From positions 415,623 through 479,622 of the forward strand of contig OZ244890.1 in NCBI GenBank assembly GCA_965221455.1: a stretch of DNA of 64,000 nucleotides, given 5' to 3'. Of this stretch, positions 45,129-47,510 are shown in pieces. The notes below the pieces were generated by a model, which did not search any database, had not been told where the DNA came from, and saw only the letters and a list, made by a program, of their open reading frames with translations. How positions within the stretch are numbered: the first letter of the stretch is position 1; each line of letters starts with the position of its first letter. The translations under genes were made by a program, and so were the position numbers. Origin of the DNA: Gammaproteobacteria bacterium. GTDB taxonomy: Bacteria; Pseudomonadota; Gammaproteobacteria; Eutrophobiales; Eutrophobiaceae.

Positions 45129-45251
45129 ATGAATATTGTTGTCTGCGTTAAACAAATTCCGGATATTCGCTCTACAATAAAACCGAATGTCCAGCGCGGC
45201 TATATCGAAACAGAACGTTTCCACCGGTTTATCAACCCCGAAGATGAATGA
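45129..45251 (+). pseudogene. N-terminal fragment of ETF beta/FixA (about 40 codons), truncated
   Basis: The fragment translates to MNIVVCVKQIPDIRSTIKPNVQRGYIETERFHRFINPEDE then a stop. This matches the FixA/EtfB N-terminus (MKIVVCIKQVPD...INPYD). The rest of the gene is absent and is replaced by the repeat region. Confidence 0.5.
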
Positions 45252-45690
45252 GCTGTTGCACAGGCATTCTCCTTTCCAGTTTCCTTTGCGGGTGCGGTGA
45301 CTTTCCAGCTTCCTGTGCGTTTATGGCTTTGATCACTGCTTGTTGTCCGGTTCATGGCATACAAATGCAAGATCACTTTCACACGTTCTGCATAGCATTC
45401 GCACACCACCTGCAGCAAATCCATGATGTGTCCTCGTTGTAACCGCAGTCTCCAACGCTGTGCCATCATCATTAGTGCACCCATCGCACTTATATATTTA
45501 TGGGTATGCGTACAGCCGTTTGTGTAGTGAGTGAATCGCCCCTGATTTTGTAGACAGCAACGGTTCAGTCTATATGAGTAAAGGAGGTGTGCATGAATAA
45601 CAAAATCTATAAAGAATTTTCCGCACCAAAAGCGCTCCCCCTGCCAGGGGGAGTCCTCCGCAGGGGGTGGGGGCATATGAGTAAATCATC

Positions 45691-45894
45691 TGAACATCGT
45701 CATTCCCGCGAAAAATATGTCCTCGCAGAAGTTGTGTATTTTTTTGCGTCTTATAGATTCCCGCTTGCGCGGGAATGACGGGGTAGTGGTGCAGGAAGCG
45801 CGGAGCTTGAAAAGCAACCACCCCACCCCTGCGGGGCACCCCTCCTTGACAAGGAGGGGAGTGAGTTAGCCGACAAAGTTGAGTGACAGTAAAA
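45691..45894. repeat. 204-bp direct repeat, copy 1 (contains internal 13-bp inverted repeat cgtcattcccgcg...cgcgggaatgacg and the palindrome cccctccttgacaaggagggg)
   Basis: It is about 95% identical to 46010-46213. Confidence 0.85.
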
Positions 45895-45924
45895 TCGTCA
45901 TTCCCGCGAAAGCGGGGATCCAGA
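45895..45924. repeat. short palindromic element, variant A (tcgtcATTCCCgcgaaagcGGGgATccag)
   Basis: It is a member of the family cgtcatt-stem-aaa-stem'-aatccag. It has the same 5' half as the long inverted repeat inside the 204-bp units. Confidence 0.6.
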
Positions 45925-45940
45925 AAAACGAAGGCCTGGT

Positions 45941-45995
45941 GCCTGCCTTACGCTTTCCTGAGTTTAGTAGTGCACATGGGTGGAAAGAAAAGCCG
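45941..45995. repeat. about 55-bp repeat, copy 1 (gcctgccttacgctttcctgagtttagtagtgcacatgggtggaaagaaaagcc)
   Basis: A second copy at 47412-47477 is about 85% identical. The two copies bracket the degraded IS. Confidence 0.55.
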
Positions 45996-46009
45996 CTTAA
46001 TAAAATGAC

Positions 46010-46213
46010 TGAACATCGTCATTCCCGCGAAAAATATGTCCTCGCAGAAGTTGTGTATTTTTTTGCGTCTTATAGATTCCCGCTTGCGCGGGAATGACGG
46101 GGTAGTGGTGCAGAAAGCGCGGAGCTTGAAAAACAACCACCCCGCCCCTGCGGGGCACCCCTCCTTGACAAGGAGGGGAGTTAAGTAGCTGGCAAAGTTG
46201 AGTGACAGTAAAA
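46010..46213. repeat. 204-bp direct repeat, copy 2
   Basis: It is about 95% identical to 45691-45894, with a few point differences (g/a at three sites and the tail gtgagttagccgac versus gttaagtagctggc). Confidence 0.85.
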
Positions 46214-46500
46214 GCATTTCCCGCCCTAAAAGCTCTCCCCCTGCCAAGGGGGAGTGTAGTGGTCTAATAAATCCGTACCAGGTGATAGGTGATGAAATCA
46301 CATACTCATGGAGGTACGGCTCATGACAAAAGAACGAAAACACTTTACACCTGAGTTTAAACAAGATGCTGCCTTGTCTGGTAGTAGACCAGGACTACAG
46401 CATCAAAGAAGCCTGTCCAGTTGAGCAATTAAGCACGCACTATCGTCAAAGTGACGGCGATGATTGTCAGTAGCCAGCAGGGCTTATCGCAACAGTCACC

Positions 46501-46529
46501 TCGTCATTCCTGCGGAAGCAGGAATCCAG
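46501..46529. repeat. short palindromic element, variant B (tcgtcATTCCTGCggaaGCAGGAATccag)
   Basis: The flanks match variant A, but the stem has compensatory changes (cccgcg/cggg becomes cctgcg/cagg). Confidence 0.6.
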
Positions 46530-46701
46530 GTGCTGATTGCAACTCGTCTGAATTGCTTCGCTAAAGCTCTCCCCCTGCCAAGGGGGAGGGGGTTGCAGGG
46601 GGGAGGGAATGACGACTTACAACATCACCACAAACAATACAGACATTACCGCAACCAGCTTCCAGCATTCCATGTGACCGCCTGAAAGCATCAACCCCTG
46701 C

Positions 46702-46731
46702 CGTCATTGCGAGCAAAGCGAAGCAATCCAG
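46702..46731. repeat. short palindromic element, variant C (cgtcATTGCGAGCaaaGCgAAGCAATccag)
   Basis: The flanks are the same and the stem sequence is a third version. A reverse-orientation copy lies at 46894-46924. Confidence 0.55.
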
Positions 46732-46893
46732 TAAACTTTAAAGATAAGTCAGGATACCTTGAAATATTTGAAGATATGCAAAATGCCATTGCCAGAGAAA
46801 AATAAATTAAAGCTGACTCCCGCAAAAAGAAACCTGCCCTGATTGAAAAACACAATCCGGAATGGAACAATTTATATGAAGATATTGTTTAAT

Positions 46894-46924
46894 CTGGATT
46901 GCTTCGCTTTGCTCGCAATGACGG
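46894..46924. repeat. short palindromic element, variant C, inverted copy
   Basis: The sequence ctggattgcttcgctttgctcgcaatgacgg is the reverse complement of 46702-46731. Confidence 0.6.
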
Positions 46925-47411
46925 TGCAACGTCCCAACCAGGTTGGGTATACGTGACGTATGTCCGGGTCGGGACACGGTGGCTGTATTTAGCCCTGGTC
47001 ATGGATTTGTATGCCCTGCGTATTGCCTATGAATCCAGAGCTAAACCCAGGGGATTGATGTATCACTCTGACCAGGGAACTCATTACACCAGCCGTGCTT
47101 TTCAGCAACTGCTTTGGCGATATCATATCAAGCAGAGTATGAGCCATCGAGGTAACTGTTGGGACAATGCCCCAATGGAACGCTGTTTTAGAAGTTTTAA
47201 ATCGGCATGGATGCCGAAGACCTTCTATTCATCTTACGCACAAGCTGAACACGACATTATGCAATATATCAAATATCACAATCATCATAAGGAGCATCGC
47301 TATATTGTGTATCTAACACCGGTTGACGCTGAGAAACAAATCGCATGAAAACAACCTATCGACTGGTACGGAAATACCGGACCACTTTAAGTACCCCGCA
47401 GGGGGGAGGGG

Positions 47412-47477
47412 GTTGTTAGTGCCTGTGCCCTGCGCTTTCCCGAGTTTAGCCATGCACATGGGTGGCAAGAAAAGCCG
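47412..47477. repeat. about 55-bp repeat, copy 2
   Basis: The sequence gcctgtgccctgcgctttcccgagtttagccatgcacatgggtggcaagaaaagcc is preceded by a gggggagggggttg motif that is also present at 46584. Confidence 0.55.
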
Positions 47478-47510
47478 GTGCAGTGAGCGTCCATGCTGTC
47501 CATGCAGCCA

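Follow-up and report, generated by a model that had tools for sequence, protein, structure and literature searches.

What are the short palindromes that crowd one intergenic region of a gammaproteobacterial contig, and do they belong to a described family of repeats? The region lies between 45.69 and 46.93 kb of the window, by which we mean the whole 64-kb stretch of contig OZ244890.1 analyzed here, and a preliminary description of this DNA had reported four framed palindromes in it without being able to assign them to any family. The cluster was found to be built from an oriented hairpin repeat (CGTC-ATT…AAT-CCAG), present in six full and four truncated copies. A family of this kind has already been described, and the window palindromes are very probably its members, namely repeats of the NTS/SRM type recognized by the nuclease Ssn, which here form a decayed instance of a known system. 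The NTS (Neisseria Transformation Sequence) is a 28-nt element, CGTCATTCCCGCGMAVGCGGGAATCYRG, that includes ATTCCC-N8-GGGAAT, the dRS3 repeat known from earlier work (Chenal et al., Nat Commun 2025, PMC11893778). The same study defined the broader class of Ssn-related motifs (SRM) and showed that SsnA, a 94-aa single-domain GIY-YIG nuclease, binds and cuts these repeats only as single-stranded DNA, at a site a few nucleotides upstream of the repeat, leaving the reverse strand uncut. Cleavage depended most on the three nucleotides 5' of the palindrome and binding on the C that directly follows the palindrome, and hairpin-preserving swaps of the stem abolished the activity of SsnA, which also left an RNA version of the site unbound. 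Strand-specific cleavage was demonstrated for four Ssn homologs, and ssn genes, which encode single-domain GIY-YIG (cd10448) proteins, usually have copies of their own repeat on either side (PMC11893778). The family identity of the repeats, a remnant of the gene and the architecture that joins them are all present in the window.

The criteria of that study were applied to the window, namely the NTS with one mismatch at most and the SRM pattern HGTCWYN(0-2)YYVSBRHN(0-5)WNVSBRGN(0-2)RNCYNB, and the counts were compared with those in 100 dinucleotide shuffles. The NTS was found with one mismatch each at 45753–45780 (−), 45896–45923 (+), and 46072–46099 (−), and the SRM pattern matched the same three copies, against 0.16 ± 0.39 matches in the shuffles. 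These are the copies that we call A and A'. The A-type copy at 45896–45923 has the sequence CGTCATTCCCGCGAAAGCGGGGATCCAG, and the two A'-type copies at 45753–45780 and 46072–46099 share the sequence CGTCATTCCCGCGCAAGCGGGAATCTAT. A full B-type copy, CGTCATTCCTGCGGAAGCAGGAATCCAG, occupies 46502–46529 (+). The repeat finder located a full C-type copy, CGTCATTGCGAGCAAAGCGAAGCAATCCAG, at 46702–46731 (+), and its exact reverse complement follows at 46894–46923 (−), so that three full copies lie on each strand. The sequences suggest that A/A', B, and C stand for three specificity types, of which A/A' is the NTS proper. The truncated copies comprise a 5' half of the A type at 45698–45713 (+; CGTCATTCCCGCGAAA), recognized by the repeat finder and from the sequence and broken in the loop; a second 5' half, likewise broken in the loop, at 46017–46032; a 3' half of the C type at 46548–46562 (−; reverse complement AGCGAAGCAATTCAG); and a 5' stub at 46605–46618 (−; reverse complement AAGTCGTCATTCCC), the last two from the repeat finder. 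All four elements of the preliminary description were thus recovered in their places by sequence reading, repeat finder and frame count; two full minus-strand copies and the four truncated ones had escaped it. The 13-bp inverted repeat with a 57-nt loop that it had mentioned also exists, with measured arms of 16 nt and 51 nt between them. It makes more sense as a 5' half of the repeat opposite a complete copy in inverted orientation, the left arms being the halves at 45698–45713 and 46017–46032 and the right arms the complete copies at 45753–45780 and 46072–46099.

The frame CGTC-ATT…(A/G)AT-C is retained in all six full copies, so that GTC precedes the palindrome on its 5' side and a C follows on its 3' side. 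The conserved, oriented frame that had been noticed earlier is real and coincides with the positions decisive for Ssn (PMC11893778). The frame pattern GTCATT-N-AATCCAG matched three times in the window, where 0.03 matches were expected from shuffles. Beyond the cluster, no match to the published SRM pattern was found elsewhere in the 64 kb, and the 7-mers CGTCATT and AATGACG occurred as isolated copies only. An origin as chance palindromes was ruled out by the shuffle comparisons of the frame and of the NTS/SRM pattern. The lead given by the general form ATTCCC-N8-GGGAAT, formerly likened to small dispersed repeats of other proteobacteria, proved correct: this is the Neisseria dRS3, whose core is exact in the two A' copies. 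The remaining types deviate from it, with GGGGAT in A, ATTCCT/AGGAAT in B, and ATTGC/GCAAT in C.

Only one gene is joined physically to the repeats. A profile match placed an ssn pseudogene, corresponding to the C-terminal half of a GIY-YIG Ssn protein, at 46752–46889 (+), in the interval that the two C copies enclose. The 162 nt that separate the C copies read in frame as …GYLEIFEDMQNAIAREK, a stop (46803–46805), IKADSRKKKPALIEKHNPEWNNLYEDIV, and a terminal stop (46890–46892). Against an Ssn profile of 96 positions built from eight intact homologs, the remnant aligned with positions 50–95 (E = 3.8e-14), and the Pfam GIY-YIG model matched the 52-aa remnant weakly (E = 0.01) over positions 51–75 of 78, at the end of the domain. 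NCBIfam gave no match with the 52-aa remnant, and a word-indexed protein search with it returned its own near-copy as the sole match. When the remnant was compared with plasmid records by tblastn, annotated GIY-YIG nuclease genes and the ssnA locus of N. gonorrhoeae were obtained; the translation of the latter keeps Y6, Y17, and E64, in agreement with PMC11893778. The Pfam family PF01541 was recorded on all 120 homologs listed, these being the best 120 of 3920. The remnant is devoid of the N-terminal catalytic half, so that the GIY and YIG tyrosines are lost. The two C copies are complementary over 31 of 31 nt (46702 arm versus 46894–46924), and the whole forms a 222-nt module (46702–46923) with perfect 31-nt terminal inverted repeats. 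The C copies are the left and right arms of an SRM-ssn-SRM unit whose gene is half-deleted and interrupted by a stop. A 27-mer specific to this module had no match in genome_contigs or metagenome_contigs.

Whether B and C belong to the same family was examined at intact ssn genes elsewhere. Independent stretches of species-representative genomes with the exact C-type 30-mer number more than 120, and the taxa concerned include Bradyrhizobium, Sphingomonadales, Legionellales/Coxiellaceae, Bacteroidia, Spirochaetaceae, and others. One such locus (L232) is a perfect SRM(+)-ssn-SRM(−) unit with C-type arms and an intact gene, and the same arrangement around an intact ssn was observed in L225 and L366, the upstream arm of L225 being a C-class variant. 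C-class copies stand on both sides of an intact ssn in L173, L369, and L370, where the upstream copy is often in the opposite orientation; L173 has two reversed copies ahead of the gene and a C-type copy behind it. The intact Ssn proteins nearest to the remnant are flanked by the ATTGCGAG…GCAAT class, in which the inner hairpin is variable and covarying. Similarly, the B-type core is present in more than 120 independent metagenome stretches; each of the six metagenome loci with an intact ssn has a B-type copy no farther than about 100 nt from the gene, and one of the loci (L304) has the form SRM(+)-ssn-SRM(−) with B-type arms. Beside ssnA of N. gonorrhoeae and Photobacterium, NTS copies lie on both sides or after the gene; in the N. 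gonorrhoeae locus they lie on both sides. From their place beside intact genes, B and C would be genuine members of the family. At least two widespread arm variants, ATTCCTGC…GCAGGAAT and ATTGCGAG…GAAGCAAT, flank ssn yet escape the published search pattern, and published copy counts may for this reason be underestimates. Among loci L125–L244 (genome_contigs), 121 of 141 copies are identical to the exact 30-mer CGTCATTGCGAGCGAAGCGAAGCAATCCAG, which is common to Alphaproteobacteria, Legionellales/Coxiellaceae, Bacteroidia, Spirochaetaceae, and Bdellovibrio-like genomes; such cross-phylum conservation is unusual for non-coding DNA.

Folding was evaluated for single-stranded DNA with nearest-neighbor parameters, and z scores were derived. 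The A' copy (−9.0 kcal/mol, z = −4.7) and the B copy (−7.8 kcal/mol, z = −4.5) each fold into an 8-bp stem closed by a 4-nt loop, and A forms a 5–6-bp stem with a 4-nt loop (−6.4 kcal/mol, z = −2.5). Covariation was scored on a sample of viral contigs picked by the frame alone, which contained 39 distinct 28-mers. All five inner pairs were complementary in 15 of these 39, among which five different stems occurred, and the covariation score of 0.272 (0.116 ± 0.022 for shuffled sequences) was reached by none of 500 shuffles. The stem covariation proposed for the four elements hence holds across the family. In the window itself it comes down to a single compensatory change, from C:G in A to T:A in B, and the third of the proposed stems is not complementary, because C (GCGAGC/GCGAAGC) folds only as a weak two-tier hairpin. 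By nearest-neighbor parameters, a stable hairpin is predicted for A', B, and A and not for C. The inner part of the common C version (121/141 copies) is GCGAAGC. This heptamer is a mini-hairpin whose stability is underestimated by nearest-neighbor rules.

Several observations weigh against the assignment to the NTS/SRM-Ssn system. C has only a 5-bp outer and a 2-bp inner stem, with −2.7 kcal/mol and z = −0.5. B and C both fail the published SRM pattern; B needs three mismatches to reach the NTS, and C has no NTS match. The Ssn profile search detected no intact ssn in the 64-kb window, and none of the best 120 of 3920 homologs obtained with a chimeric query was an intact ssn of the presumed source contig. 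The sites may accordingly be relics without current activity. Compared with the published system (PMC11893778), the locus shares the consensus within one mismatch (three copies), the oriented flanks, the hairpin, an ssn flanked by inverted copies, and the clustering. It differs in that the gene is a half-deleted pseudogene, that B and C fall outside the published pattern, and that three variant types occur within 1.2 kb. The locus is a decayed new member of an already described family. A repeat family that looked unassigned gains a name and a mechanism, and an instance of Ssn/SRM is added beyond the organisms studied so far; the current understanding is not overturned, and the additions to the known system are modest.

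If the assignment is right, the palindrome would fold when the repeat DNA becomes single-stranded, as in intermediates of transformation, conjugation, replication, or repair. An Ssn protein, a single GIY-YIG domain of about 95 aa, would then bind the hairpin plus the C directly 3' of it and would cut a few nucleotides 5' of GTC, solely on the strand that carries the repeat in forward orientation. Four homologs characterized in PMC11893778 supply these steps, which are extended to this locus by inference, as is the idea that the window sites were once, or still are, cleaved in this organism; such cleavage would require an intact Ssn elsewhere in its genome.

The pairs of C-class copies also raise the question of whether SRM-ssn-SRM units are, or were, mobile elements that propagate themselves by means of a GIY-YIG single-stranded-DNA nuclease and decay as insertion sequences decay to MITEs. 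Convergent pairs were found in three sizes, that is, many doublets of about 74–94 nt, half-gene units of 219–222 nt (the window and L004, a second locus on a metagenome contig), and an intact unit of 372 nt (L232), and at least 17% of the exact C copies have a convergent partner 11–58 nt away. A rare loop variant is common to both arms of the window module and suggests that one arm was copied onto the other. The half-deleted inverted-repeat remnants and minimal doublets of ssn bear on whether the units are mobile. The likeness of NTS-ssnA-NTS to an insertion sequence was raised in PMC11893778, where doublets, remnants, and MITE-like derivatives are not mentioned. The 222-nt module, with its perfect terminal inverted repeats and a non-functional piece of an internal gene, resembles MITEs derived from insertion sequences; it differs from them in having no demonstrated target-site duplication or independent insertion. 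Since both half-gene modules sit in the same larger composite, they do not represent independent insertion events. The size series suggests MITE-like decay of ssn units and lends support, short of proof, to mobility of this kind, a tentative suggestion that we consider rather doubtful. If true, dispersed SRMs would descend, as non-autonomous elements, from a new nuclease-based mobile class and would not be regulatory sites evolved by the host.

Alternatively, the repeats could be recombination substrates of the dRS3/NIME type, the link to Ssn being incidental. A Piv/IS110-like recombinase could use them as attachment sites, in the manner of the Nf prophages of Neisseria, or they could be patches of homology that favor the exchange of adjacent genes. 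The exact ATTCCC-N8-GGGAAT core in two copies speaks for such a role, as does the mosaic of repeat units adjoining a high-GC, probably foreign, repetitive gene of 1250 aa, and dRS3 has been cited as a target of a phage recombinase (PMC11893778). However, no Piv/IS110-type gene was noticed near the cluster, although no systematic search of the window was made for one; the sole gene physically tied to the repeats is the ssn remnant, and the flanks conserved beyond the core are precisely those that matter for Ssn. We judge this explanation improbable as a replacement for Ssn targeting, with which a role as recombination sites could coexist. In layout, the cluster resembles Neisseria dRS3/NIME arrays in its exact core (two copies), in repeats separating filler units, in its intergenic mosaic, and in the adjacent gene for a probable surface protein. 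The differences are the 43% G+C window, the context of methylamine utilization, and the lineage-specific fillers. NIMEs are defined as units of ~50–150 bp between dRS3 inverted repeats in intergenic arrays, whereas the fillers of the window interleave with SRMs and are not regularly bounded by dRS3 pairs; in sequence they are presumably unrelated to the Neisseria units.

Action at the level of RNA, as small RNAs or as hairpins that stabilize or terminate transcripts, was also considered, the example being WsnRNA46 of Wolbachia. The module at 46702–46923 matched RF02625 (WsnRNA46) below threshold, with 29.9 bits (gathering score 65.3) and E = 3.5e-4, and in layout the two are alike, with inverted SRM-like arms around a spacer, while the arm sequences themselves are different. 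The DNA arms that the two have in common account for this match, and no Rfam match in the window reaches its gathering score. Moreover, the copies occur in both orientations, promoter- and terminator-like sites are no more frequent than in shuffles, and SsnA does not bind RNA (PMC11893778). Published evidence speaks against the RNA-level function that had been proposed for these elements and indicates that selection is not on structure alone: structure-preserving swaps kill the activity of SsnA and the enzyme ignores RNA, so that little support is left for an RNA-level reading, which we hold to be very unlikely. The long helix of RF02625 is itself an inverted pair of SRM-like arms (uGuCauccgaGuggcugaCaCuGGgauCcaG), and the WsnRNA46 small-RNA family may be an SRM doublet.

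As for classical REP/REPIN sequences spread by RAYT, an IS200/IS605-type Y1 transposase, the short oriented palindromes, some convergent inverted doublets (spacers of 11–58 nt), and the BIME-like mosaics formed by the clusters recall them, yet the gene that recurs between the arms codes for a GIY-YIG nuclease instead of a Y1 transposase, so this origin deserves almost no credence and the REP/MITE-like character noted earlier stands as an analogy, not as an identity. The analogy consists of a single-gene nuclease, domesticated or selfish, within its own hairpin repeats, which occur as singlets, convergent doublets, and mosaics; RAYT is an HUH/Y1 transposase, whereas Ssn is a GIY-YIG protein whose units have no demonstrated transposition.

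Having placed the repeats in the NTS/SRM family, we return to the mosaic that carries them. A dead IS3 element encloses the cluster, a decayed mosaic whose repeats are interleaved with lineage-specific fillers in a NIME-like manner. A 205-bp unit is present twice on the plus strand, at 45690–45894 (half-SRM, inverted full SRM, G-rich tract, and palindrome P2) and at 46009–46213 (half-SRM, full minus-strand SRM, and P2). This is the 204-bp duplication of the preliminary description; the copies are 96% identical according to the repeat finder, and a second comparison gave 95.3% over 212 bp. The recurrence of GC-rich palindromes was also borne out. P1 (CTCCCCCTGCCAGGGGGAG) has three copies, two of them within filler D3 (45611–45654 and 46211–46255, both +) and the third at 46563–46588 (+), and the copy at 46229–46255 folds at −9.2 kcal/mol. 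P2 (CCCCTCCTTGACAAGGAGGGG), a lineage-specific filler, has two, at 45839–45859 and 46158–46178. Filler D4 lies at 45939–45995 (+) and, with 85% identity, at 47419–47477 (+), which marks the right edge of the mosaic. Among ~370 fetched loci, P1, P2, D4 (52–59 nt), and the G-rich tract were seen only in the window and L004. Pfam had no match on the spurious open reading frames (ORFs) across the mosaic. The scan for tRNA and tmRNA found none, so that a reading as an integration site was not adopted.

The left part of the IS3-family element extends from 46258 to about 46480 (+) and includes an orfA-like stub (46323–46424) that was assigned by eye, Pfam being silent; this left part recurs with the same sequence in L004. 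The right part of the element (46925–47386, +) holds an rve/orfB remnant at 46953–47333, which matched Pfam rve, rve_3, and rve_2 and, by tblastn, residues 130–277 of IS3 orfB (E = 2e-45). The element ends in a 33-nt inverted repeat (46258–46290 versus 47354–47386). These terminal repeats were ruled out as the source of the hairpins because the IS3 ends are unrelated to them in sequence. When the whole region was searched against the plasmid collection, the IS3 part alone was matched.

The same composite was found in L004, with 95.5% identity over 686 bp and a different gene context, and a unit of ~406 bp with the deleted-ssn module is tandemly repeated there. For the presumed source contig, a remnant ORF (P0123) that differs slightly from that of the window is on record. 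The L004 composite and this ORF, the two further occurrences known, indicate that the window copies are not the only ones; SRMs are expected to have many copies per genome (tens to hundreds). At 5576–5700 and 5982–6100 of L004, 4–5 degenerate tandem copies of a ~21-nt half-site (GGGGGAAACTCGCAATGACGG) follow the right arm of each module and form arrays of SRM 5' halves.

On its left, the mosaic begins after a possible truncated etfB-like stub of 40 codons (45129–45251, +; MNIVVCVKQIPD…FINPEDE and a stop), which aligns over residues 1–38 with beta/small subunits of electron-transfer flavoproteins (ETF) in the PDB (best 5ol2_B, E = 0.008); Pfam gave no match on the 40-codon stub at such a length. 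On its right, the cluster stops ~30 nt before the stop codon of the 1250-aa ORF (47511–51263, −), which has 58–60% G+C in a window of ~43%. This ORF is repetitive (47530–47600 resembles 47698–47768), shows a faint match to fn3_6, and possibly encodes a horizontally acquired surface protein. NTS clusters likewise adjoin surface-protein genes in Neisseria.

Upstream of the mosaic, ~19.8–44.0 kb contains an N-methylglutamate/methylamine-like gene set next to folD, with sarcosine-oxidase-like GCV_T/SO_alpha, DAO, two Glu_synthase-like proteins, Gln-synt_C, GATases, and an ammonium transporter, which suggests a methylotroph-like host. The ssn remnant lies ~1.8 kb from folD, and in several ENA metagenome contigs (L370–L373, 1–1791) an intact ssn stands ~700 nt downstream of folD; this resemblance is probably a coincidence. 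Further downstream, 52412–60788 (−) encodes a PfaA-like synthase of 2221 aa (KS-AT-ACP x3-KR-DH) preceded by a PfaD/FabD-like protein, and its predicted domains point to a locus of the polyunsaturated-fatty-acid type or for a related polyketide.

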